A stretch of DNA of 64,000 nucleotides from an uncultured Rhodospirillaceae bacterium. Its GTDB lineage: Bacteria; Pseudomonadota; Alphaproteobacteria; UBA6615. The position numbers were made by a program, and so were the translations under genes. Where the stretch lies: the NCBI GenBank assembly GCA_964530225.1, contig CAZHBA010000057.1, positions 553-64,552 on the forward strand. Direction: 5' to 3'. Positions 2,088 to 32,943 of this stretch are shown one piece after another (the first letter of the stretch is position 1; each line of letters starts with the position of its first letter). Under the pieces are notes generated by a model. The model worked only from the letters and a program-made list of their open reading frames with translations, was not told where the DNA came from and ran no database searches.

Positions 2088-2561
2088 ATGGAAAAAACTC
2101 CAATGACCGCCGAGGGTCATGCGACCCTTCAGGACGAACTCCGCAATTTAAAAACCGTGGAGCGTCCCGCCGTTATCAAAGCCATCGCGGCCGCCCGCGA
2201 ACACGGCGATTTGTCCGAAAACGCCGAATACCATGCGGCACGTGAGCGGCAGGGCTTTATCGAGGGCCGCATCGGCGAGTTGGAGGACGCGACAAAACGC
2301 GCCGAAATCATCGATACGTCCAAGTTAAAGGGCAAAACCGTCCGGTTTGGAGCCAAGGTGAAGCTTGCCGACGAAGATTCCGGTGACGAAATCACCTATC
2401 AGCTAGTCGGCGAATTCGAGGCGGATTTAAAGAAAAAGAAAATCTCTATCGCTTCGCCGCTCGGCAAGGCCTTGATCGGCCGTGAGGCCGAAGACAGTGT
2501 CGAGGTACAAACGCCAAAAGGCGTACGCTACTACGAAATCGTCTCCGTCCGATTCAAATAG
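2088..2561 (+). CDS. greA: Transcription elongation factor GreA.
   Basis: 157 aa with an N-terminal coiled-coil (acidic tip around DLSENAEY) and a C-terminal FKBP-like domain. It lies immediately downstream of carB. Confidence 0.9.
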
Positions 2562-2594
2562 AATAGAATTAGCACCGCCCTGGATTGGACGCCT

Positions 2595-3110
2595 CTAGGA
2601 TTTGATGTCGTCCACCGGCACACCCGACTCGTGCTTGGACGTACGAATTACCTGAAATGTCTGCACCGTCGTCACGTGCGCCGCACTGGTCAGCCGGGTC
2701 GTTAGCTCGTTCTCGTGCGCCGTGTTGCGCGCGACCATGCGCAATAGAAAATCACCGCCGCCGCGGATCATGTCGCAGCGCCGCACTTCTGGCCATGCGC
2801 CGATTTCGGCTTCAAATTGGGACAGCACACCGCCGGCCTGGCTATTGAGGCCGACCAAAGCGTGAAAAGACACTTCGTAACCTAAAAGCTCACCGTCCAA
2901 ATCAGCATGGTAACCCGTGATGTATCCGGCTTTCTCCAATGCTCGCACCCGCCGCAGGCAGGGCGGTGCAGAAATTCCAGATAAACGAGCCAACTCAACA
3001 TTGGTCATCCGCCCGTCATCTCGTAAATTTTGCAAGATGCGACGATCGATGGAATCCAATTTGACCCGGCGCTGGGCCAGACTGTCGGTGGGACCGGAAG
3101 ACATCGCCAT
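2595..3110 (-). CDS. Lrp/AsnC-family transcriptional regulator.
   Basis: N-terminal HTH (LDSIDRRILQNLRDDGRMTNVELARLSG) and a C-terminal RAM/AsnC_trans domain. It is divergent from the operon starting at 3279. The start was chosen at an internal Met. Confidence 0.8.
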   Translation of the reverse strand: MAMSSGPTDSLAQRRVKLDSIDRRILQNLRDDGRMTNVELARLSGISAPPCLRRVRALEKAGYITGYHADLDGELLGYEVSFHALVGLNSQAGGVLSQFEAEIGAWPEVRRCDMIRGGGDFLLRMVARNTAHENELTTRLTSAAHVTTVQTFQVIRTSKHESGVPVDDIKS

Positions 3111-3278
3111 GGAAAACATTTCTCCAAAAATCGGTGGACACCGCCGCGCAATAATAGGAATCACCGCGACCGGTCGCCTATATTAACCGTAAATGGGCTG
3201 GCGTCCCGATGTTAGCAAATTGAAATAATATTTCAATCGGCGCTGGGGGGGGGCGGCTTTCAACAGTTCGGGTTTTCC

Positions 3279-4268
3279 GTGGCTAACACATCGACAACTA
3301 GCCCCGTCACTTGGGTCGTCACCGACGGCCGGCTTGGTATGATCAACCAATGCCGTGGTCTTGTGGCAGCTTTGGGCGTAACGGCCGAAGAAAAAAAGAT
3401 CGTACTTTCGGCGCCGTGGTGCTGGCTACCGCCCGCTATAACCCCTGCCTGGCTAAGCGTGCTGTCTGGGTCAGGCGACCAGCTGTCGCCGCCTTGGCCG
3501 GAATTGCTTATCGGCACCGGACGTAAATCGGTGACACCGGCGCTGGCCGTCAAACGGGCCAGCGGTGGACATACTTTTTGCGTGCAGGTGCAGAACCCCG
3601 ATGTGGCCCTGGAAAAGTTTGATTTGGTCATCGCGCCCGACCACGACCAGCTCAGTGGTAGCAACGTTCTGAATACATTGGGCTCACTGCATGGCATTAC
3701 CGCCACCGTCCTCGACGAAGCCAGAGTGCTCTTCGCCGATACCATTGCCGGGCTACCCCGGCCTCTGATCACCGTGTTACTTGGTGGCCACAATGCGGTC
3801 TACCGCATGGATGAGAGCATCGCCGCTCAGCTTGCCGATGATCTGGCGGCACTCGCTAGTGCCAAGGGTTACGGACTTGCCATCACCGCTTCGCCGCGCA
3901 CACCGAGCAAAACGGTCGACCTAATAAACCAGCGTCTTGCTACTGAACTGGTGAGCTCGAAAGCGGTATTTTGGGACGGCAATGGCGCCAACCCCTATCT
4001 GGGTTATTTGGCGCATGCCGACGCAATCATCGTAACTGGCGACTCGGTGAACATGGTCAGCGAAGCGGCGGCTACGGGAAAGCCCGTCCATGTCATCGAT
4101 TTGCCTGGCGGGTCCGATAAGTTTCGCCGCTTTCATACCGCTATGGCCAAGGCGGGAATTACCCGTCCCTTTAGCGGCGCCATAGAGTACTGGTCCTATA
4201 CCGCACCCAACGATACGAATCGTGTCGCGACGGAAATCCACCGCTGCATGAGCCAACGCGGCATCTGA
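3279..4268 (+). CDS. ELM1 / DUF1022 family protein, a predicted nucleotide-sugar-dependent transferase-like protein.
   Basis: About 330 aa. The N-terminal motif VTDGRLGMINQCRGLVAALG resembles the bacterial ELM1-family signature (xLTDGKxGHENQ). It is the first gene of a tightly spaced four-gene operon. Confidence 0.6.
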   Translation: MANTSTTSPVTWVVTDGRLGMINQCRGLVAALGVTAEEKKIVLSAPWCWLPPAITPAWLSVLSGSGDQLSPPWPELLIGTGRKSVTPALAVKRASGGHTFCVQVQNPDVALEKFDLVIAPDHDQLSGSNVLNTLGSLHGITATVLDEARVLFADTIAGLPRPLITVLLGGHNAVYRMDESIAAQLADDLAALASAKGYGLAITASPRTPSKTVDLINQRLATELVSSKAVFWDGNGANPYLGYLAHADAIIVTGDSVNMVSEAAATGKPVHVIDLPGGSDKFRRFHTAMAKAGITRPFSGAIEYWSYTAPNDTNRVATEIHRCMSQRGI

Positions 4269-4954: not shown

Positions 4955-6955
4955 ATGGCCCTGAACATCGACACCTTTTCCAACATCAAGGGCGGCTTTC
5001 CGTTTTTCAAGGCGATGGACCATCCCGCGGTCGCGCCGAAAGCGCGCACTCTACTCACCCGCCTAGCCGATAACGGACCGCTGGCGATCTATGACCCGAC
5101 GGGCTTCGCCACGGCATTTTCCGAAATCTATCCGCTGACCGGCCTCGATATCGCCCATGTATATGTGCAGGATTTGTCCGCCCTGGGACAGCAAGTATTC
5201 GGCCACACGACCCAGCCGGTTACCGATTTGGCTTCTGACGATGTTACTTCGCTTCTGGTCGTCGCTTTCGATGCCGACAAGATTTTGCGCGACATCGCGC
5301 TTCTGGTGCCGCCAGCCACCGAAGTTTTCACCCTCGACGAGTTGCGCCTCGACGAGAGCCGACTGACCAACAAAAAACTTTATCTGGACCCGTTCAACTT
5401 TGCGACCAATTTCGCCTGGTTCCGCGACGCGCCAGATGGCCGCGGTGGCCACCTGCACAGCCGCGTGGCAACCGCCAACTATTGGCACCGCTATGGTGCC
5501 CGCGATGTGACCCTGTGGCTAACGCTACTCGATGAAACCGGGGAGACGATCGCCGAGTGGGACCAACCGTTACCCGACGCGCCCGCAGGCATCATCATCG
5601 ACAGCGCCGAGGTACGGGAACGCTTCGGTCTCAGCGACTTTACCGGTCAGCTGTTCTTGCACGCCATCGGCATCGCCGGCCACGATATCGTCAAATATGC
5701 GTTGGATACTTTCGGCGACGATCCCAAAGATCTGTCGTGCACCCATGACGCCAACGCCTGGCCGGCCGATTTTTATGCCGGACTGCCGGCACCGAAGGCC
5801 GACGAACGCGTGGTGCTATGGATCCAAAATAGCCACCCCTGCCCGATCCCCACCAACGCCATCGGCCTCAACCTCATGGGCGACGATGCGGACGCAGTGT
5901 GGCTGGACGAGGAAATTCCACCTTTTGCCACCTACGCGCTTGATGTCGCCCAGCTGCTGCCCGACATTGAGTGGCCGCAGCAGTTGGAAGTGCGCGCCGG
6001 CAAGCATTTCGTGCGGCCGCGTTACGAAATCGAGTGCACCTCTAACGGACAAATCAACCGGCGACGAATGGCGCACACCAATGTCGAGCGCACCGACCTA
6101 GAGCCCAACCCGCAGATCGCCGAGATCAGCAATTTGATGGGCAAGGGTTTCCTGCTTCCAGCACCAGTCTTGCCGCCGGAACGTTACCGCTCAATTATGT
6201 TGCCGACGCCAATGACGCGGACCCAAGAGATCCTGCCGGTCGCCGTCTTGATTTACGACGCAAAGGGCCGCGAGGTCGCCCGCCACAACTTCGGCGAACT
6301 CGCCCGCACCGAATGTGCCGCCATCAATGCCGACGAATTGGGTGATGGCCAGCTCAACGATACACTCGACGGCGAGGCCGGCCACATGGAATTGGTCTAC
6401 GACTTCCCCGCCGCGACGCGCGATGTCGACGGCTGGCTGCATGCGCTGTTCCGCTACGAAGACAAGGCGACCGGCCACGCGGCGGAATCGAGCTTCGGCG
6501 CACACATCTTCAATACGGTGCTGACCTGGAAGGACGAACCCCAGTCCTACACCGACAATCCACCGGGCCTGTCGACGCGGCTGTTTCTGCGCACTGCCCC
6601 GGGTATGGCCGTACCAGGGTTGGCGACGGATGGCGACGGCGCCAACAGTTTCTGCCAACTCATCTATCCCGCTTCAACGCCGTGGCACGGCGCCTCGCAG
6701 ACCGATCTTACGCTTCACGCCGGCGATGGCAGCGTGGTGGCAACACAGACGGTGAATATTCCTTGTGGCGGCTCGCTCTACTGGCTCCTCTCGGACATGT
6801 TTGACGAAAGCCAGCGCGCCCGCGCTGCCGAAGCTGGCCCAGCCGGCGGCGGTTATGTGATGATCCGCGATACCACCTGCCGGTTATTCGGTTATCATGG
6901 CCTGATCGCCGCCGACGGCGCAGCATTCAGCCTGGACCATATGTTCGGATTCTAA
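4955..6955 (+). CDS. Large hypothetical protein (666 aa): an N-terminal ~130-aa domain followed by three roughly 150-aa internal repeats.
   Basis: Long high-GC ORF with coding-like composition and no recognisable catalytic motif. It begins 21 nt after the oxygenase gene, and the next gene starts 22 nt after it. Confidence 0.7.
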   Translation: MALNIDTFSNIKGGFPFFKAMDHPAVAPKARTLLTRLADNGPLAIYDPTGFATAFSEIYPLTGLDIAHVYVQDLSALGQQVFGHTTQPVTDLASDDVTSLLVVAFDADKILRDIALLVPPATEVFTLDELRLDESRLTNKKLYLDPFNFATNFAWFRDAPDGRGGHLHSRVATANYWHRYGARDVTLWLTLLDETGETIAEWDQPLPDAPAGIIIDSAEVRERFGLSDFTGQLFLHAIGIAGHDIVKYALDTFGDDPKDLSCTHDANAWPADFYAGLPAPKADERVVLWIQNSHPCPIPTNAIGLNLMGDDADAVWLDEEIPPFATYALDVAQLLPDIEWPQQLEVRAGKHFVRPRYEIECTSNGQINRRRMAHTNVERTDLEPNPQIAEISNLMGKGFLLPAPVLPPERYRSIMLPTPMTRTQEILPVAVLIYDAKGREVARHNFGELARTECAAINADELGDGQLNDTLDGEAGHMELVYDFPAATRDVDGWLHALFRYEDKATGHAAESSFGAHIFNTVLTWKDEPQSYTDNPPGLSTRLFLRTAPGMAVPGLATDGDGANSFCQLIYPASTPWHGASQTDLTLHAGDGSVVATQTVNIPCGGSLYWLLSDMFDESQRARAAEAGPAGGGYVMIRDTTCRLFGYHGLIAADGAAFSLDHMFGF

Positions 6956-6977
6956 GCAGGAATAATAAGGGGAATTC

Positions 6978-7709
6978 ATGGAGGAGAAAGAATCGCGGAT
7001 CACCACCGCGGAAGGCGAGATGTATGCCTTTTCGGCCTGGCCGGAGGACGACGGACCGCACCCGGTGGTGATCATGTACATGGATGCACCGGGCATCCGC
7101 GAAAAACTGCGCAACTTCGCCCACCGCATCGCCGGCCAAGGCTATTACGCGCTGCTACCCGACCTGTATTACCGGCTCGGCGATATCCGCTTCAACCTGG
7201 CCAACCGCAACGACAAAATGGACGAGATGATCTTCGCTGCATGGCATAGCCTGAGCAACGCCGGGGTCGCCAGCGACACCAAGGCAATGCTCGAATTTCT
7301 CGGCAACGACGCGGAGGCCTCCGACGGTCCCATGGGCTGCGTCGGCTATTGTATGAGTGGCGCCTTCGTCGTCACCGTGGCCGGCACGTTCCCCGACCGG
7401 TTCGCAGCTAACGCCTCGCTCTACGGTGTCTGGATCGTCACCGAGCACGACGATTCGCCGCACCGGCTGGCCGATAAAATCGAAGGCGAAATGTATTTTG
7501 CCTTCGCCGAGCACGACCAGTGGGTGCCCGACAACGTCATTCCCGATCTTACCGCCACCCTCGACACACATGGGGTTGCCCACGAGATCGAAACCTATCC
7601 CGGCACCGAGCACGGCTACGCCTTTCCCGAGCGTGCCACGTACGACGAACCCGCCGCCGAGGCAACGTGGACAAAGATATTTGATCTGTATTCGCGCACG
7701 CTAGGATAA
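6978..7709 (+). CDS. Dienelactone hydrolase family protein.
   Basis: alpha/beta hydrolase fold with the nucleophile-elbow-like motif CVGYCMSGA and a DLH-like N-terminus. It is the last gene of the operon. Confidence 0.8.
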   Translation: MEEKESRITTAEGEMYAFSAWPEDDGPHPVVIMYMDAPGIREKLRNFAHRIAGQGYYALLPDLYYRLGDIRFNLANRNDKMDEMIFAAWHSLSNAGVASDTKAMLEFLGNDAEASDGPMGCVGYCMSGAFVVTVAGTFPDRFAANASLYGVWIVTEHDDSPHRLADKIEGEMYFAFAEHDQWVPDNVIPDLTATLDTHGVAHEIETYPGTEHGYAFPERATYDEPAAEATWTKIFDLYSRTLG

Positions 7710-7779
7710 TTGTGCCTTGCGTGTTACCGGCGCGACTGGGACACTTTTGTGAATTAGGCATTTCCTGGGAGACATTTTC

Positions 7780-8889
<1,110 letters not shown>

Positions 8890-9029
8890 GTTATGTACCG
8901 TTTTGTTCGCGCCAGCCTTGCCTCCCACGGGTGGCCCAACTATCTAAATACCAGCAAAATCAACATGGTCTCGTAAACCAACTCCGCTGGGCGGGTCCCG
9001 GCCGCCAGAAATTACTCAGGAACCCCAAC

Positions 9030-11039: not shown

Positions 11040-11256
11040 ATTAACCGATTTGGAACAGTGAGATCGCGCACAGACGTTCTATTTTGAACAGTGTAGCGAT
11101 GCTCTTAAAGCACCGACCGCGTATAGCGCGCCTCCCTCCCGGCGCACACGCGAAGGGCACACGCGAGGGGTTGTGCAAGTAGCCCTTACGTCTCCCAAGA
11201 CGTAAAGCCTCCCTGTTCAACTCGGCCGGACCCCCATCGGGTCCGGCCTTGTTTTT
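11040..11256 (+). ncRNA. Candidate small structured RNA ending in an intrinsic terminator.
   Basis: No credible ORF. Contains a 9-bp hairpin (cttacgtct/agacgtaaag), a direct repeat gcacacgcga x2, and a strong terminator ggccggaccc-ccatc-gggtccggcc followed by TTGTTTTT at 11225..11256. The upstream region is AT-rich and promoter-like. Confidence 0.25.
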
Positions 11257-11289
11257 AACGATTGCTTCAGCCGGCACCCAGCAGTTACC

Positions 11290-11940
11290 GGTAGAGCGGC
11301 TCTTTCTTCAGACCAGTATATAAACCAGCCACGAATTCCGCATACCTACTGAATAACTGCGCCGACACACGGTCGCGCTGGCTGCCGCCGAGCAGCCATT
11401 CGCTTGCCTGGCTCCAGCGCCGATGATTGACCTCCGGATTCACGTTGCCCAGAAACCGTATTCGTTTTCCTGCAGCGCCCCCAGAAGGTCTTAGGGCGTT
11501 GATCGGTAAAGCTGATAATCGACTTGAAGCCGTACCTCCACAGCACCGCCATTGCCCATGCTTCGACGCAGCGGCGACGGTGGAGGCGCTCCTCCAACGT
11601 TACCTTTTTCAACAGATTGCCGATGCCGATCTAGAGTTTTTTCTCGACCATACCATCGATTAAAATCTCCCAGAGACGGATATGGAGCCGCTGGACGCTA
11701 CGCGAGATTTTCTTGTGGGAGCAGAACTCGTAGCGGTTGTTAGTTATAGGTGATGGCATCCCACTCAGCGGTGATATCGCGGTCGAGCACGTAGGTCGGA
11801 TTGCGCTTTACCGGATACATGCCCACCGTCGGGCCCTAGCCCTTCGTCACCATCGCCTGGCTGGTCATCAACCTGGAGATAGTTCCGGTGATAATCGGGC
11901 CGGCCGCAATCGTCTTAGCGGTCTGGCGGTGGTTTAAAAG
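11290..11940 (-). pseudogene. Degraded coding remnant or remnants; identity unknown.
   Basis: Protein-like minus-strand translation (MATPEDVLLNHRQTAKTIAAGPIITG...) is interrupted by an in-frame TAG and several frame changes. Short overlapping ORFs occur on both strands. The 1.2-kb gap between genes is otherwise unexplained. Confidence 0.3.
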
Positions 11941-12145
11941 CACATCTTCTGGCGTCGCCATATATTCGGTCAATTTTCAACCGCGTTTGACTTTGACGAG
12001 CATCATTTCTCCATACGCCTAGAGCACACGTTCCGGATACATTGTGCCACTCCTAAAATGTGTAAAGCGTAAACGAAACGCAGCTCACACGTAGTTCAAT
12101 GTTTTTGTCATGAAACAAACCACTTTTTGCAGTGTTAACCCAGTT

Positions 12146-13357
12146 TTACGCCGTTTGTGGCCCCACCAAACGTTCCAGTAGCTGGTCACGGATCGGCCAA
12201 TGGAGCAGCGCCGCGATGATGCCAAGGGCAATCGAGGCATACCACATCGAGGTGTAACTGCCGGTCGCGTCGAACGCGACCCCGCCCAGCCAGGCACCCA
12301 AAAACGACCCGATTTGATGGCTAAAAAAGACAAAGCCGAACAGCATACCTAGATGTTTGGCGCCGAAAATACGCGCTACCACGCCGCCGGTCAGCGGCAC
12401 AGTCGACAGCCAAAACAGGCCGAACAATGCCGCAAAGACATAAATTGTCCATTCCGTTGTCGGCAGAATCATCAAAGCGGCAATTATGGCCGCACGAGCG
12501 AGATATATTAGACTCAACAAGTGTTTTTGGCGATATTTCTTACTCAACTCGCCAGCGATATACGTACCCACAATATTACCAAAGCCGATCACGGTCAGTG
12601 CCACCGCACTGACACCGGCGCTTAAACCTTGGGTGTCAATATATCCAGGCAGATGGGTACCGATGAACGTGACGTGAAAACCGCAGACAAAAAAGCCAGC
12701 GACCAGCAACAGATAGCCCGAATTTTTGCGTGCGGCAGATAGCACCTCGAATAAATTCAGTTCGGGATCATCTGTGATCACATCCTCCGCCGTATTGAAT
12801 AGGCGCGCCAGAGCCGCCATCAACAGGGCGACCACCCCGGCTGCAAGCAAAGCGAAAAACCAACCAGCAACTCCGATAACAGCCTGACTTACGCTCGGCA
12901 GAATCATTGGGCCCAACGCGCCGATGGTGCTAACGAGGGCCACCGCGTAGGTGCGGTTTTCCGGCGTCACCGCCCGCGACACAGCGCTATATACAACGGC
13001 AATACCGGTGCCGCTCATGCCTAGACCGATCAAAACACCGCCAGTGAGAACTAGTTCGGCTGGCGTGATCGCATTCGCCATCCCAAATACACCAATGGCA
13101 TAGAGGATCGCACCGCCGACTATCACCTTGCCCGTCCCGTAGCGGTCGCCGAGACCGCCGACGAGGGGCTGGGCCGCACCCCACAGCAGGTTCTGAACCG
13201 CTATGGCGAGGCCAAAAAGACCCCGGCTCCACTCCAGATCGATGGTCATCGGCACCAGGTAGAGGCCGAATGTCTGGCGCACGCCCAAGCTTATTCCGAG
13301 TACGGCTGCGCCAGCGATGATAATTGAAATCTGCGGGCGCGTCAGTGCGCGGCTCAT
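12146..13357 (-). CDS. MFS transporter.
   Basis: 12-TM-like hydrophobic profile with an MFS signature region (GGLGDRYG). Confidence 0.8.
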   Translation of the reverse strand: MSRALTRPQISIIIAGAAVLGISLGVRQTFGLYLVPMTIDLEWSRGLFGLAIAVQNLLWGAAQPLVGGLGDRYGTGKVIVGGAILYAIGVFGMANAITPAELVLTGGVLIGLGMSGTGIAVVYSAVSRAVTPENRTYAVALVSTIGALGPMILPSVSQAVIGVAGWFFALLAAGVVALLMAALARLFNTAEDVITDDPELNLFEVLSAARKNSGYLLLVAGFFVCGFHVTFIGTHLPGYIDTQGLSAGVSAVALTVIGFGNIVGTYIAGELSKKYRQKHLLSLIYLARAAIIAALMILPTTEWTIYVFAALFGLFWLSTVPLTGGVVARIFGAKHLGMLFGFVFFSHQIGSFLGAWLGGVAFDATGSYTSMWYASIALGIIAALLHWPIRDQLLERLVGPQTA

Positions 13358-25080: not shown

Positions 25081-26136
25081 CTAGTCGGTTTGCATCTCGC
25101 TGGCGAGACGCTCACTGAGAACTTCGCTGTAGCCGAACAGCGCCGGCGTGCCACCAGTATGTAGGAACACCACCTTCGATCCGGGCGCGACCGCGCCTTC
25201 CTTCGCCAAATGAACCAGTCCGGCAAGGGCGCGGCCGGAATAAACGGTGTCGAGCAGCAGACCTTCGGTACGCGAGCTCAGCAGCACGACGTCGTAGGTG
25301 GCATCGTTCAAGCGGCCATAGCCCGGCGACAGCACATCATCCATCGTGTGAACGTCTTCGCCAGAGACGACGGCAGATATTCCCAAAAGCTCTTCGACAT
25401 TGCGGCAGTTGGCAGCGATACGCTCAGCTTGCGCTGCGGCGTCGCGGCGCACGCAGATGCCAAACACCGGCGCATTTATACCGAGCGCCCGCAGGCCGAC
25501 CAAGAATCCGCCGTGGGTCATGCCGTTACCCGACGGCACAATGAAGGCGTCGACACTGCCCGGGTCATCTAATTGTTCGACCAGTTCCATGGCACCTTTG
25601 ACGTAGCCCAGCGCACCGGTCGGCGGATTTTCCGGCGCAAGGGGAATGACATAGGGATTGAAGCCCTGGTGCCGATCTTCTTCGGCAATCTCACGCAACC
25701 GGGCGTCCGCACCCGCCTCATCCTCGCCTTCGGGATAGGTGTGAACCGTCGCCCCTAAAAGTTTGTCCAACAACACGTTACCGCCGTTGACATAGCTGTC
25801 GTCGTAGAGCGGCACGCGGTCTTCCAACTGCACATGGCATCTCAGGCCCAGCTTGGCGGCAGCCGCCGCAGCGGCGCGAACATAGTTCGACTGGACGGCA
25901 CCGGTGATCAGAATCGTATCGGCATTCTGCGCCAGAGCCTTGCCCAGATAAAATTCAAGCTGCCGGACCTTGTTGCCACCGAAGGCCAGCCCGGTGGCGT
26001 CGTCTCTTTTTATCTGGAGCTTGAGGCCCAACTCATCTCCCAGCCGTGGCGCCGCCTCCAGGGGGGTTGGGTAATGGCCCAGGGGTGCCAACGGGAAAGC
26101 ATCCAGCAGACCGGAAACCTCGCGGGACGTCATCAT
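25081..26136 (-). CDS. D-cysteine desulfhydrase / ACC deaminase-family PLP-dependent enzyme.
   Basis: PLP-lysine motif GGNKVRQLEF in a tryptophan-synthase-beta-like fold. It is the last gene of a four-gene operon. Confidence 0.8.
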   Translation of the reverse strand: MMTSREVSGLLDAFPLAPLGHYPTPLEAAPRLGDELGLKLQIKRDDATGLAFGGNKVRQLEFYLGKALAQNADTILITGAVQSNYVRAAAAAAAKLGLRCHVQLEDRVPLYDDSYVNGGNVLLDKLLGATVHTYPEGEDEAGADARLREIAEEDRHQGFNPYVIPLAPENPPTGALGYVKGAMELVEQLDDPGSVDAFIVPSGNGMTHGGFLVGLRALGINAPVFGICVRRDAAAQAERIAANCRNVEELLGISAVVSGEDVHTMDDVLSPGYGRLNDATYDVVLLSSRTEGLLLDTVYSGRALAGLVHLAKEGAVAPGSKVVFLHTGGTPALFGYSEVLSERLASEMQTD

Positions 26137-26174
26137 GTCATCGCATCCAAATTACCGTTGATGACCGTGCTGGT

Positions 26175-27335
26175 TTAACCCAACGCGTGTTCTAGTTCGG
26201 CGAGTAGATCGCGTGAGTCCTCGACGCCCACCGACAACCGCACCAGACTATCGCTAATGCCTAGCTCCGCGCGGTTCTCCGGCGGGATCGAGGCGTGGGT
26301 CATGATCGCCGGATGCTCGATCAGGCTCTCCACCCCACCCAGACTCTCGGCTAGGGCGAACAGCCGACAACGCTCGAGGAAAGCGACGCTTTCGTCGAGC
26401 CCCCCTTTGAGGATCGCTGTCACCATGCCGCCATAGCCCTCCATCTGCCGGCTCGCCAGCGCGTGTTGCGGATGGCTTGCGAGGCCAGGATAGATCACCC
26501 GGTCGACCGCCTTGTGACCCTCCAAAAACTCGGCGACCAGTTGCGCGTTCTGCGAATGTTGCGCCATGCGCAGGTGCAGGGTCTTCAGCGCCCTCAGCGA
26601 CAAGAAACTGTCGAACGGGCCGGCGATGCCGCCGACCGCGTTCTGCAAATAGGCCAGCTGTTTGGCGAGATCACCGCGCTCGACGACAACAACGCCGCCG
26701 ACCACGTCGGAGTGGCCGTTCAAGTATTTGGTCGCCGAATGCACCACCACGTCGATGCCGTGGTCAAGCGGGCGCTGGATGTAGGGTGAGGCAAAGGTGT
26801 TGTCGCACACCGAGATCAGCCCGCATTCCTTGGCGACCACGGCGACGGCAGATAAATCGACGATGCGCAGCATGGGATTGGTTGGCGTCTCCACCCAGAT
26901 CATCTTGGTGTTGGGTTTGATCGCCGCGGTGATACGCTCGGGCTTGGTCATGTCGATGAAGGTGAAGTCTAGATTGGACGAGCGTCGGCGCACGTTTTCG
27001 AAGATGCGAAAGGTACCGCCATAGAGGTCGTCCATCGAGATCACATGATCGCCGCTGTCGAGCAACTCCAGCACCGTGCCAATCGCCGCCATGCCCGAGG
27101 CGAAGGCGAAGCCATCGCTGCCGTTTTCCAGATCGGCAACGCATGCCTCATACGCGCCGCGCGTCGGGTTCTGGGTGCGGGCGTATTCGTAGCCCTTGTG
27201 CTTGCCCGGGCTCTCCTGAACGAAGGTCGAGGTGGCGTAAATCGGCGTCATGATGGCACCGGTCGGCGGGTCGGGCTGCTGGCCGGCATGGATGGTCCGC
27301 GTCGCGAACCGAGGCCGGTTAGTCTTGTCGCTCAT
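26175..27335 (-). CDS. Cys/Met-metabolism PLP enzyme of the gamma family (cystathionine gamma-lyase / gamma-synthase / beta-lyase-like).
   Basis: N-terminus TRTIHAGQ... plus the Cys_Met_Meta_PP fold; it ends ...SVGVEDSRDLLAELEHALG, typical of the family. Confidence 0.8.
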   Translation of the reverse strand: MSDKTNRPRFATRTIHAGQQPDPPTGAIMTPIYATSTFVQESPGKHKGYEYARTQNPTRGAYEACVADLENGSDGFAFASGMAAIGTVLELLDSGDHVISMDDLYGGTFRIFENVRRRSSNLDFTFIDMTKPERITAAIKPNTKMIWVETPTNPMLRIVDLSAVAVVAKECGLISVCDNTFASPYIQRPLDHGIDVVVHSATKYLNGHSDVVGGVVVVERGDLAKQLAYLQNAVGGIAGPFDSFLSLRALKTLHLRMAQHSQNAQLVAEFLEGHKAVDRVIYPGLASHPQHALASRQMEGYGGMVTAILKGGLDESVAFLERCRLFALAESLGGVESLIEHPAIMTHASIPPENRAELGISDSLVRLSVGVEDSRDLLAELEHALG

Positions 27336-27365
27336 AACGTCGGGATACTCCACAAACAAAACGCG

Positions 27366-29671: not shown

Positions 29672-29734
29672 GCTCTGCGGGCCATTACCCGAGCCGATTG
29701 ACATGCCCGGCCAAGGCGGTTAAATCTCCTCTAT

Positions 29735-29795
29735 CGCGCCGATTTGAGTGGCCAGCTTGCGGGCGCGTAATAAATGCAGCTAAATGGGCGATTTG
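29735..29795 (+). promoter_or_regulatory. Candidate SAM-responsive leader (SAM-II-like) upstream of metZ.
   Basis: CGATTTGA...CCAGCTTGC...GCAGCTAAA arrangement, repeated once more at 29790-29815. A stem (ccgcc...ggcgg) plus T7 at 29809-29838 follows. metZ and metA leaders in alphaproteobacteria commonly carry SAM-II. This is pattern recall only. Confidence 0.3.
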
Positions 29796-29995
29796 AACTC
29801 CGCCCAGCTTGGCTACGGCGGTTTTTTTGTTGTTTTAGAGAGTGTTAAGTAATTCCGGACCGATCCCCCGACGGCAGCGCCGCAAACTGGATCCGCGGTA
29901 ATTTGATGGGCAGCTTGCGTCCGCGTCACCAATAGCTAAAGCGCCGTGGGACAAACGTTCCGCGGGCCCGAACAACGGCCTCGGAACCGATTTGT

Positions 29996-31184
29996 AATGA
30001 CCAAAGATACCCCTAAATTCCGTCAGGAAACCGCCCTTGTGCGCGGTGGCCTAGAGCGCTCGCCTTTCCGCGAGACCAGCGAGGCGCTGTTCCTCAATTC
30101 CGGCTACGTGTTCGACAACGCCGCGCAGGCGGAAGCCGCCTTCAAGGGCGAGAACGACAACTACATCTACTCGCGCTACGGCAACCCCACGGTCAACATG
30201 TTCCAGGAACGCCTGGCCGCGCTCGAAGGCGCCGAGGCGTGCTATGGCACCGCGACCGGCATGGCGGCAGTGTTCGCCTCACTGGCCTGCCAGCTTAACA
30301 CCGGCGACCGGGTGGTGTCCTCGCGCGCGGTGTTCGGCTCGTGCCACATCATCGTCGATCAGATCCTGCCACGCTGGGGCATCGAGACGGCATTCGTCGA
30401 CGGCACCAACCTGGACGAATGGGAAGCCGCCCTGTCGCAGCCAACCAACGTGGTGTTCCTGGAAAGCCCGTCGAACCCCATGCTCGACCTGGTCGATATC
30501 GCCGCAGTCAGTGACATGGCGCACGCCGCCGGCGCCTGCGTCATCGTCGATAACGTGTTCGCCACGCCGCTCTACCAGCGCCCGTTCGAGCTGGGCGCCG
30601 ATATCGTCGTCTACTCCGCCACCAAGCATATCGACGGCCAGGGCCGTTGCCTCGCCGGCGCAGTGCTGGCCAGTGCCGAATTCATGACCGAGAAGTTCAT
30701 GCCGTTCTACCGGCACACCGGCCCGTCACTCAGCCCGTTCAACGCCTGGGTCATACTCAAGGCGCTGGAGACCCTATCGGTGCGGGTTGAACGCCAGTCG
30801 GACGCCTCGCTCGACCTGGCGCGCTTTCTGCTAGAGCAACCGAAAATCAAGCAGATCTGCCATCCGGGGTTGGATAGCCATCCCCAGGCCGAGCTGGCAC
30901 AGCGGCAGATGTCGGGTTTTGGCAATCTGGTGACCTTCGAAGTAGACGGTGGCAAGGACGCGGCGTTCCGGCTGACCGATGCGCTGTCGATCATCGATAT
31001 CTCGAACAATCTAGGCGACACCAAGAGCCTGGTCTGCCATCCGGCGACGACCACCCATTCGCGGCTATCGGAAGAGGAGCGCGCCCAGCTTGGCATCTCG
31101 CCCGGCGTGCTGCGCGTTTCGGTGGGTCTGGAACATATCGACGACCTGAAGGAAGACCTGGAACGCGCCCTCGCCGCGGTTTGA
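29996..31184 (+). CDS. metZ: O-succinylhomoserine sulfhydrylase.
   Basis: Gamma-family PLP enzyme with the typical MetZ N-terminus (MTKDTPKFRQETALVRGG) and ~395 aa length. Confidence 0.85.
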
Positions 31185-31350: not shown

Positions 31351-31680
31351 ATGGCCGATGGTGACATGTCGCGCCGCGTCACCGGCACCTATCAGAGCTA
31401 CACTATGGTCATCCGCGACGGGCGGCCGCTACGCAACAAATTTTCGCTTGAGAAGACCGCCTTCGAGTTCATCGACCCCGACACCGCGGTCACCGACTTT
31501 TTCGACACCGACCAGCTAATGTCGGTCTATTACCCGCAAATCGAGACATTGATTAAGGAGCGTACCGGCGCAGCGCTGGCGGTGACCATGGACAACCCGT
31601 TCATCGCAGAGCGCGTGGTCGGGTCTCGCCACCAGGCCGAGCAGGTGGCGGTCGACGAAAGTCGAAAAACGACGAACTAA
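31351..31680 (+). CDS. Small hypothetical protein.
   Basis: 109-aa ORF. An upstream overlapping ORF at 31277 in another frame suggests a possible frameshift. No homology is recognised. Confidence 0.3.
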   Translation: MADGDMSRRVTGTYQSYTMVIRDGRPLRNKFSLEKTAFEFIDPDTAVTDFFDTDQLMSVYYPQIETLIKERTGAALAVTMDNPFIAERVVGSRHQAEQVAVDESRKTTN

Positions 31681-31716: not shown

Positions 31717-32763
31717 TCAGCGCACCCGGACGTGAGGCAAGCCGGTTTTTAATTCACCGATCATCGTGGCAAAGCTGTAACCCTGTTCATGGAACAGCGC
31801 GACCACCGCATCCGCCCGGTCAGCCGGACACGACACAAGTAGACCGCCCGAGGTTTGCGGATCCATCAGCATATTCTTGTGCCACTGCTCTATGTCATCA
31901 GGCACAGCGACATGATCGGCAAAACTTGCCCAGTTGCGGTCAGCAGCTCCCGTGTTGTAACCACTCTGGGCATATTTGAGGGCATGCGGGAGGATAGGTA
32001 ACTTGTCCCAATCCAGCATGGCGGCGAGACCCGAACCCTCGCAGATTTCGAACAGATGGCCAACGAGCCCAAAGCCGGTGACGTCGGTGACGGCGTTGAC
32101 CCCGTCAACATCCGCTAGGTCGACGCCAATAGAATTGAGCTTTGTGGTGCTCATGAGCATCTCTTTGTAGGCTTCGGGATCGAGCTCATTCTTGCTCATG
32201 GCAGCGCCGAGGATACCGATGCCCAACCCCTTGCCCAATATCAACACGTCGCCATCCTTGCCGTCGGAATTACGTTTGATCTTGCCGGGGTGCACGAGGC
32301 CAACTACCGCCAGTCCGTAGATGGGTTCGGGCGCATCGATGGTATGGCCGCCACTGACGGGCACGCCCGCATCGGCACAAGCGCTAACGCCACCGGCCAG
32401 TACCTGCTGGATTTGTTCCTGCGGCATCTTATCCACGGGGAAACCGGCAATGGCTAACGCCATGATTGGCTTACCGCCGTTGGCATAGACATCGGATAGG
32501 GCGTTGGTGGCCGCGATACGGCCATAATCGTGCGGATCATCCACGATGGGCGTGAAGAAATCGGTGGTCGCAACCACGGCCTGTTCTTCACTGATCTTGT
32601 AAACGGCCGCATCATCACCCGTCTCAAATCCAACTAACAGCGCCGGATTTACGACCTGGGGCGGCAGTTTCGAAAGTATGTCTTTAAGCACCGACGGTGC
32701 TACTTTGCAGCCTCACCCACCTCCGTGGGACAGCTCGGTCAGTCTCTTGACCTCCGCGTCCAT
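31717..32763 (-). CDS. selD: Selenide, water dikinase (selenophosphate synthetase), a selenocysteine-containing form with an in-frame TGA at 32713-32715.
   Basis: The track ORF starts at VLKDIL. Extending upstream gives [32 protein letters not shown]..., which aligns with E. coli [22 protein letters not shown], putting TGA at the Cys17 position. An 11-nt spacer then a hairpin uagcacc-guc-ggugcua with GU in the loop follows the TGA (SECIS-like). The rest of the protein aligns with SelD along its length. Confidence 0.85.
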
Positions 32764-32943
32764 GGCCGGACTCCTTTACACTGGATCAAACATCGTTGCG
32801 TTAATCTACGAGGATACAGAATGAATCGGCGACAATAATCGCATCAACGCCGATGGTCACAGCGTCATCCACATCGCGACGGCAAGCGGCGTCTTGTAGG
32901 CCTGCGCCGCCGCCCAACTTTCCAGATGCTATCTCACTCGGCT

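Follow-up and report, generated by a model that had tools for sequence, protein, structure and literature searches.

An in-frame UGA at the catalytic position of selD in an uncultured Rhodospirillaceae bacterium is predicted to encode selenocysteine

Does a bacterial selD gene begin after an in-frame TGA, as gene callers have it, or is it translated through that codon? The question is raised by the selD gene on the minus strand of the stretch analyzed here, 64,000 nucleotides (nt) of contig CAZHBA010000057.1 from an uncultured Rhodospirillaceae bacterium (the whole 64-kb stretch is called the window below). The longest conventional open reading frame (ORF) of this gene starts at a GTG past the TGA. 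Our analysis favors selenocysteine (Sec) as the meaning of the UGA, which is codon 17 of the full gene, and from the sequence evidence we put the probability of this at about 0.9. The first steps of the argument need the following positions.

31717..32763, minus strand: full selD coding sequence from the read-through translation, 348 codons including the predicted Sec17, plus the terminal TGA stop (31717-31719)
32771..32776, minus strand: Shine-Dalgarno-like AAGGAG, 7 nt before the selD ATG, read from the sequence
32761..32763, minus strand: selD ATG start codon, the same ATG in 8/8 aligned members of the clade defined below, with codons 7-16 after it under purifying selection
32713..32715, minus strand: in-frame TGA, selD codon 17, the predicted Sec codon at the catalytic Cys17 position, from alignment and conservation
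31717..32691, minus strand: truncated ORF of 324 amino acids with a GTG start after the TGA, the longest conventional ORF and an annotation artifact

Codons 1-17 on the minus strand read ATG GAC GCG GAG GTC AAG AGA CTG ACC GAG CTG TCC CAC GGA GGT GGG TGA, and 331 further codons, starting GGC TGC AAA GTA GCA CCG TCG GTG CTT, follow before the TGA stop at 31719-31717. With Cys put at codon 17, the read-through translation matched the NCBIfam equivalog NF002098 at 490.5 bits (cutoff, 299) over residues 3-340 and TIGR00476 at 413 bits (cutoff, 125), and it contained both AIRS domains (PF00586, N-terminal, E = 2e-27; PF02769, AIRS_C, E = 2e-19). The match to Escherichia coli SelD (PDB accession number 3u0o; E = 4e-95, query residues 6-338 against chain residues 6-334) is gap-free in the N-terminal region; hence, codon 17 corresponds to Cys17 and Lys20 to Lys20. 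The glycine-rich N-terminal loop reads SHGGG-U-GCK in the window and SHGAG-C-GCK in 3u0o, so that the two residues by which a SelD is recognized, Cys/Sec17 and Lys20, are both in place. By these matches, the gene product is assigned as selenophosphate synthetase SelD (selenide, water dikinase). The initial annotation of this stretch had described the listed 324-residue ORF as N-truncated, extended the frame upstream through the TGA at 32713-32715, and placed that TGA at the catalytic Cys17 of E. coli SelD; our translation and alignment agree exactly with all three statements.

UGA is still a normal stop codon in this genome, where ordinary TGA stops end selD itself, metZ, and the neighboring acyl-CoA dehydrogenase gene, and codon reassignment is excluded. 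The TGA at codon 17 is also not a sequencing error, because four independent assemblies agree on it. It is identical in contigs from ENA ERZ27286381, Logan SRR25584962, JGI 3300035250, and NCBI GCA_035092285.1, all of which are 99.9-100% identical to the window, carry the same neighboring genes, and, in the 112-190 nt around the TGA that were compared, show 0-1 mismatch to it.

The homolog sample comprised 80 selD loci (one genome per species) and 80 more from a metagenome scan, 160 loci in all. The window and its 11 closest homologs (L001-L007 and L089-L092, with 70-81% amino acid identity to the window), which are assigned to uncultured Alphaproteobacteria, Rhodospirillales, or Rhodospirillaceae or lie on unbinned metagenome contigs, are referred to here as the clade. 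All 12 members have TGA at codon 17 followed by an identical AGCACC-GUC-GGUGCU hairpin, and all hold full 348-codon frames without further stops. Across the 160 loci, UGA and Cys (TGC or TGT in more distant homologs) alternate at codon 17, and Cys/Sec17 and Lys20 are present in every homolog examined. In a neighbor-joining tree built from the genome-scan loci, L001-L007 group with the window in one clade, and TGC is the codon of the sister clade, L008-L011. A betaproteobacterial TGA clade that branches outside these two has another hairpin, CGCCAGC-GUU-GCUG-A-GCG, positioned one codon further on (offset, 20 nt), and clostridial Sec-type selD genes have yet another one (offset, 33 nt). As far as the tree goes, the pattern fits an ancestral Sec form and one Sec-to-Cys conversion, which is the direction of conversion reported for the SelD family (PMC1794560).

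What would distinguish a Sec codon from a stop is the RNA that follows it, in bacteria a selenocysteine insertion sequence (SECIS) within the reading frame. Two elements lie directly downstream of the UGA.

32702..32712, minus strand: 11-nt spacer GGCUGCAAAGU from the UGA to the hairpin, encoding Gly18-Cys19-Lys20 and the start of Val21
32687..32701, minus strand: predicted bacterial SECIS hairpin AGCACC-GUC-GGUGCU, from conservation, geometry, and a predicted stability of -7.2 kcal/mol

The stem consists of six perfect base pairs (bp), formed by 32701-32696 with 32692-32687, and encloses a 3-nt GUC loop (32695-32693). In bacterial SECIS elements, 16-37 nt separate the UGA and the apical loop (PMC10778597), and a guanosine in that loop is conserved (PMC1976440). 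The window's hairpin has both features: its apical loop starts 17 nt past the UGA, and a G opens it. The initial annotation had recognized the bacterial SECIS geometry, and the 6-bp stem, the GUC loop, and the 11-nt spacer in its drawing (uagcacc-GUC-ggugcua) hold. The seventh pair, u-a, was misread, as the 3' arm is GGUGCUU and not ggugcua; this pair is U.U in the window and U-U, U-G, U-A, or U-C in relatives. Changes in the spacer among clade members are all synonymous (TGC/TGT and AAA/AAG).

At 16-37 nt downstream, 11 of the 1,610 TGA trinucleotides in the window (0.7%) have a hairpin with a GU-start triloop and 6 bp or more in its stem, and the hairpin at the selD UGA exceeds chance expectation. 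As candidates for other genes with a UGA and a hairpin, the matches over long ORFs (e.g., 10015, minus strand, and 41639, plus strand) were rejected as shadow frames, the well-supported genes there being on the other strand; none of the remaining matches in the window scan resembled a real interrupted gene.

Selection and codon columns were analyzed in eight sequences, the window and L001-L007. Over codons 18-26, which cover the spacer and the hairpin, the proportion of synonymous differences (pS) is 0.18 versus 0.55 in the rest of the gene, a threefold drop. Among the 188 degenerate columns with an invariant amino acid, 27 use a single codon, and codons 21-25, in the hairpin, are the sole run of five. 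On this codon evidence, a constraint at the RNA level overlies the protein constraint at the hairpin.

The hairpin also separates the two types of selD. Within the genome set, a hairpin with a GU-start loop at 16-37 nt was found at 23/25 Sec-type and 6/55 Cys-type loci, counts that weigh less for Sec than they seem to, since the sequences are related and a Fisher p-value overstates their independence. GU-loop hairpins occur in three separate Sec clades with differing sequences and offsets of 17, 20, and 33 nt, and most Cys clades are without one. Judged by these comparisons, only the specific GU-loop hairpin, and not the folding energy, discriminates Sec-type from Cys-type loci. A hairpin of 5-6 bp with a GU-start 5-nt loop 21 nt past the Cys codon was seen in several Cys-type genes (L021, L025, and L047-L050, from Comamonas and Pseudooceanicola); these hairpins may be SECIS remnants of the kind described previously (PMC1794560) or a by-product of the codons for APGVLS.

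Further observations count against Sec at codon 17. With a z of -1.2, the 60-nt region does not stand out in folding energy, and the overall minimum free energy does not split Sec-type from Cys-type loci (means of -11.1 versus -10.1 kcal/mol; p = 0.11). The hairpin is invariant in the 12 clade members and hence shows no compensatory base changes. A permissive Rfam (release 15) scan of 32600-32800 gave no SECIS match and returned two chance-level matches to unrelated families (E = 6.7 and 9.6); this miss does not count against function, because bacterial SECIS elements are too short and diverse. As for the Sec machinery, a tblastn search of the window and the 160 loci with E. coli SelA, SelB, and SelU found no selA, selB, or selU in the 64 kb of the window or, among the clade members, in the 10 kb on either side of selD; no tRNA-Sec was found there either, the single tRNA of the window being a tRNA-Val. 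The protein SelB of a related lineage (L093, described below), used as a query against 5.8 billion proteins, gave thousands of SelB matches, many from named Rhodospirillaceae; of the best 120, a saturated set at 51-56% identity, none was linked to a contig carrying a clade selD. A 'tRNA-???' in L010 was considered as a tRNA-Sec and ruled out, as it has an N-masked anticodon and a tRNA-Ser-like sequence.

Where, then, would the machinery be? L093, whose SelD is 62% identical to that of the window and 66-70% identical to those of the sister clade, has a cluster of selA (5468-6880), selB (6894-8825), and tRNA-SeC(UCA) (8869-8964), followed by a Cys-type selD. The immediate sister lineage therefore decodes Sec. 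After this selD lies a UGA-interrupted gene with a UxxC motif (...IPI-U-PFC..., 11056-12282) and a GRDB-family match, which is probably a second selenoprotein gene of the sister lineage. For the window's own genome, strong indirect evidence in the selection pattern, the hairpin, and the conserved UGA leads us to infer that selA, selB, and tRNA-Sec lie elsewhere.

The alternative that survives best, with only a small chance of being right, accepts read-through but has the UGA recoded not, or not only, to Sec: a near-cognate tRNA would insert Trp, or tRNA-Sec would insert Cys under selenium scarcity. Bacterial UGA is naturally leaky, and the Sec machinery is only predicted for this genome. However, Trp at the catalytic position would be inactive, and homologs show only Cys or UGA at codon 17. 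Moreover, SelB-dependent decoding is marked by just such a conserved GU-loop hairpin at the canonical distance, and the sister lineage decodes Sec.

Slighter still is the chance that the true protein is the 324-residue form starting at GTG 32691, with the 16 codons upstream of the TGA being a separate leader peptide or untranslated. This form is the longest conventional ORF and is used in all public gene calls. Selection on the codons before the GTG argues otherwise. Before the UGA, codons 7-16 have a pS of 0.45 and a proportion of nonsynonymous differences (pN) of 0.05 (pN/pS = 0.11), compared with a pS of 0.55 and a pN/pS of 0.22 in the gene body; hence, the codons ahead of the UGA are translated, in frame with the remainder of the gene. 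Between the UGA and GTG 32691, codons 18-24 contain no start codon and have changed only synonymously, and they can therefore be translated only by read-through of the UGA. The signals for initiation also belong to the ATG: inspection of the sequence ahead of GTG 32691 revealed nothing like a Shine-Dalgarno sequence, while AAGGAG precedes the ATG, and relatives have a purine-rich block at the same spacing upstream of theirs. In addition, the GTG falls within the 3' arm of the hairpin, the SelD model aligns from residue 3, and the 324-residue form would be without Sec/Cys17 and Lys20, two conserved residues that none of the examined homologs lacks. Thus, the claim of the initial annotation that the start lies upstream of the TGA was borne out in close relatives, where the ATG is invariant and codons 7-16 are under purifying selection.

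The least likely explanation is a pseudogene, in which a nonsense mutation of TGC to TGA, a change of one base, left an N-terminal fragment and a downstream ORF to decay; no Sec machinery is visible in the window and a neighboring 109-residue ORF looks truncated, a hint of local decay, but the TGA is kept in 12 lineages diverged to 70-81% amino acid identity, pN/pS is 0.11-0.22 on either side of it in full 348-codon frames without more stops, and decay would not preserve such a pattern or an invariant hairpin, so that the selection analysis effectively refutes this reading.

With Sec as the preferred reading of UGA17, synthesis of the enzyme can be pictured as follows. Translation would start at ATG 32763, and the hairpin 11 nt past UGA17 would act as a bacterial SECIS that recruits SelB-GTP-Sec-tRNA(Sec), so that Sec is inserted at UGA17 in place of termination. 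The product would be a SelD of 348 residues with Sec17 and Lys20 in its glycine-rich N-terminal loop. SelB binding, the presence of selA, selB, and selC elsewhere in the genome, and the incorporation of selenium are the presumed parts of this scheme. Since SelD provides the selenium donor that goes into its own Sec residue, making new SelD would require both available selenium and SelD that is already active. The initial annotation had pointed to this dependence and regarded it as interesting; the dependence is a known property of Sec-type SelD and of SPS2, long established in the literature and not new.

For the databases, the gene exists only in its short form. As the initial annotation expected of annotation pipelines, the public collection holds only a 324-residue product: the exact sequence, in a cluster of four members of 324 residues, under the JGI name 'selenide,water dikinase'. 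A 348-residue form with X at position 17 is not in that collection, and gene calls on the independent contigs likewise begin past the TGA. The stored copies of this SelD and its cluster mates are without both catalytic residues; therefore, surveys of selenium use would score the lineage as having a defective or non-selenoprotein SelD. A corrected gene call would mark this alphaproteobacterial (Rhodospirillales) lineage as Sec decoding and add an independently shaped SECIS (offset of 17 nt, GUC triloop) for training bacterial selenoprotein predictors.

What the selenophosphate is used for might be read from the gene neighborhood, and here the clade offers little. There is no synteny, as none of the neighbors of the window's selD flanks selD in relatives, and Pfam/NCBIfam annotation of the relatives' flanks gave no common selenium-related gene; the genes found there encode KatG, a LysR regulator, an enzyme resembling the adenylating enzymes of nonribosomal peptide synthetases (NRPS), phosphodiesterase-like and GT2 proteins, TGT, a NifU-like protein, and UbiT/UbiU. 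In the closest relatives, three genomes (L001, L003, and L006; 6977-9586 and 11933-14580), selD is flanked by an NRPS-like adenylation protein of 869 residues and by an overlapping pair, a phosphodiesterase-like protein of 522 residues and a GT2 glycosyltransferase. We know of no selenium link for these flank genes common to the three genomes. Upstream of selD, only about 50 nt are conserved, and within them, some 40 nt ahead of the ATG, lies a TAGATTA box.

32802..32808, minus strand: TAGATTA box, a possible -10 promoter element, conserved in the window, L001, L002, L003, and L006 and degenerate in L004 and L005

A simple sigma-70 scan detected no full promoter at this box. The arrangement suggests that selD moves together with its own promoter and leader, because the TAGATTA box is kept though the flanking genes differ in every genome. 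We consider it improbable, but worth stating, that the Sec-type selD is a free-standing module of TAGATTA box, leader, and gene that is relocated among unrelated contexts and that Sec decoding is kept chiefly to build SelD for a nonprotein selenium pathway. If this were true and SelD were the only or main selenoprotein, selenoneine or other small-molecule selenium metabolism would be coupled to Sec decoding.

Elsewhere in the sample, in the betaproteobacterial Sec-type clade (L012-L016, L019, L023, L112, and L132), the gene immediately upstream of selD, on the opposite strand, is selU for tRNA 2-selenouridine synthase. This neighborhood matches the published idea that a Sec-containing SelD can sustain selenouridine synthesis (PMC1794560). 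Several freshwater metagenome-assembled genomes of this clade are titled 'Bordetella parapertussis', an apparent mislabel.

Otherwise, the window consists of ordinary core genes of the chromosome, with carB, greA, a thioredoxin-reductase-like gene, glcDEF-like genes, clpB, prfA, hisS, ispG, and lysC. The 109-residue ORF mentioned above (31351-31680, plus strand) is convergent with selD, with 37 nt between its end and the selD stop. Its match to the 263-position CmcJ/NvfI oxidoreductase profile scores 64.6 bits, under the cutoff of 80, and is confined to positions 26-126. On independent contigs the ORF has the same length and carries the precomputed Pfam label PF27522 (YDMC); it may be what truncation has left of a longer gene beside selD or else a small protein made up of this domain by itself. 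A SAM_alpha riboswitch (29726-29803, plus strand; 47.4 bits, gathering score of 36) lies upstream of an ORF for a MetZ-like pyridoxal phosphate enzyme of Cys/Met metabolism (29946-31184), and two further sulfur-amino-acid enzymes are encoded at 25081-27359. The riboswitch identifies its host as an alphaproteobacterium. An ORF of 666 residues at 4955-6955 (plus strand) has a strong coding signal (GC content at third codon positions of 0.74) and no Pfam match at E <= 1e-5.

How does this selD compare with known systems? One relative is SenC, a SelD homolog and the selenophosphate synthetase of the selenoneine cluster senABC (bioRxiv 10.1101/2022.04.13.486033). In the clade members L005 and L091, a homolog of the selenoneine synthase SenA that passes the family cutoff (474.8 bits; cutoff, 420) is encoded directly upstream of the Sec-type selD (2406-3722 and 1162-2475, respectively), and the selD of these two may be a Sec-dependent SenC. 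No senB is visible on their short contigs, and SenB (TIGR04348) was not seen beside selD in any clade member. Around selD in the remaining members of the clade lie genes of unrelated kinds. For the window's selD the role of SenC was set aside, with no senA in the 64 kb by tblastn and no senB among the annotated genes. A 368-residue 'N-terminal extension' of the L005 SenA ORF was also considered as a fusion and dismissed as an over-extended shadow reading. SenA-like neighbors were observed at many Cys-type selD loci of Burkholderiales as well.

E. coli SelD (3u0o) has the motif SHG-G-[C/U]-GCK and Lys20 in common with the window's protein and differs in having a Cys codon without a SECIS where the window has UGA. 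The closest model for the RNA is the experimentally defined SECIS of E. coli fdhF, likewise a stem-loop within the ORF with G-U-C in its apical loop. By the same script, the loop starts 17 nt after the UGA in the window and 18 nt after the UGA in fdhF (codon 140). The stem in the window pairs without interruption over 6 bp and closes a 3-nt loop (-7.2 kcal/mol), whereas in fdhF a U bulges out of the upper stem and the loop, GGUC, has 4 nt (-4.2 kcal/mol). The bulged U of fdhF contributes to binding by E. coli SelB, and the window's hairpin has no counterpart of it.

The SelD proteins of Haemophilus influenzae and Aquifex aeolicus are natural Sec forms. The window's gene belongs to their enzyme family and shares the UGA at the catalytic position, with a predicted in-ORF SECIS hairpin just downstream. 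It differs in that its clade of uncultured Alphaproteobacteria/Rhodospirillales is publicly recorded only as 324-residue products and in that its hairpin (AGCACC-GUC-GGUGCU, offset of 17) is distinct from those of the betaproteobacterial (offset of 20) and clostridial (offset of 33) clades. Together with FdhA, SelD is listed as the most widespread bacterial selenoprotein (PMC1794560, PMC5029168, PMC4561486). Sec-type SelD with a UGA and a hairpin is thus well known in bacteria, and the window's gene is a further, misannotated case; its practical value lies in annotation, and its biology confirms a textbook arrangement and reveals nothing new.

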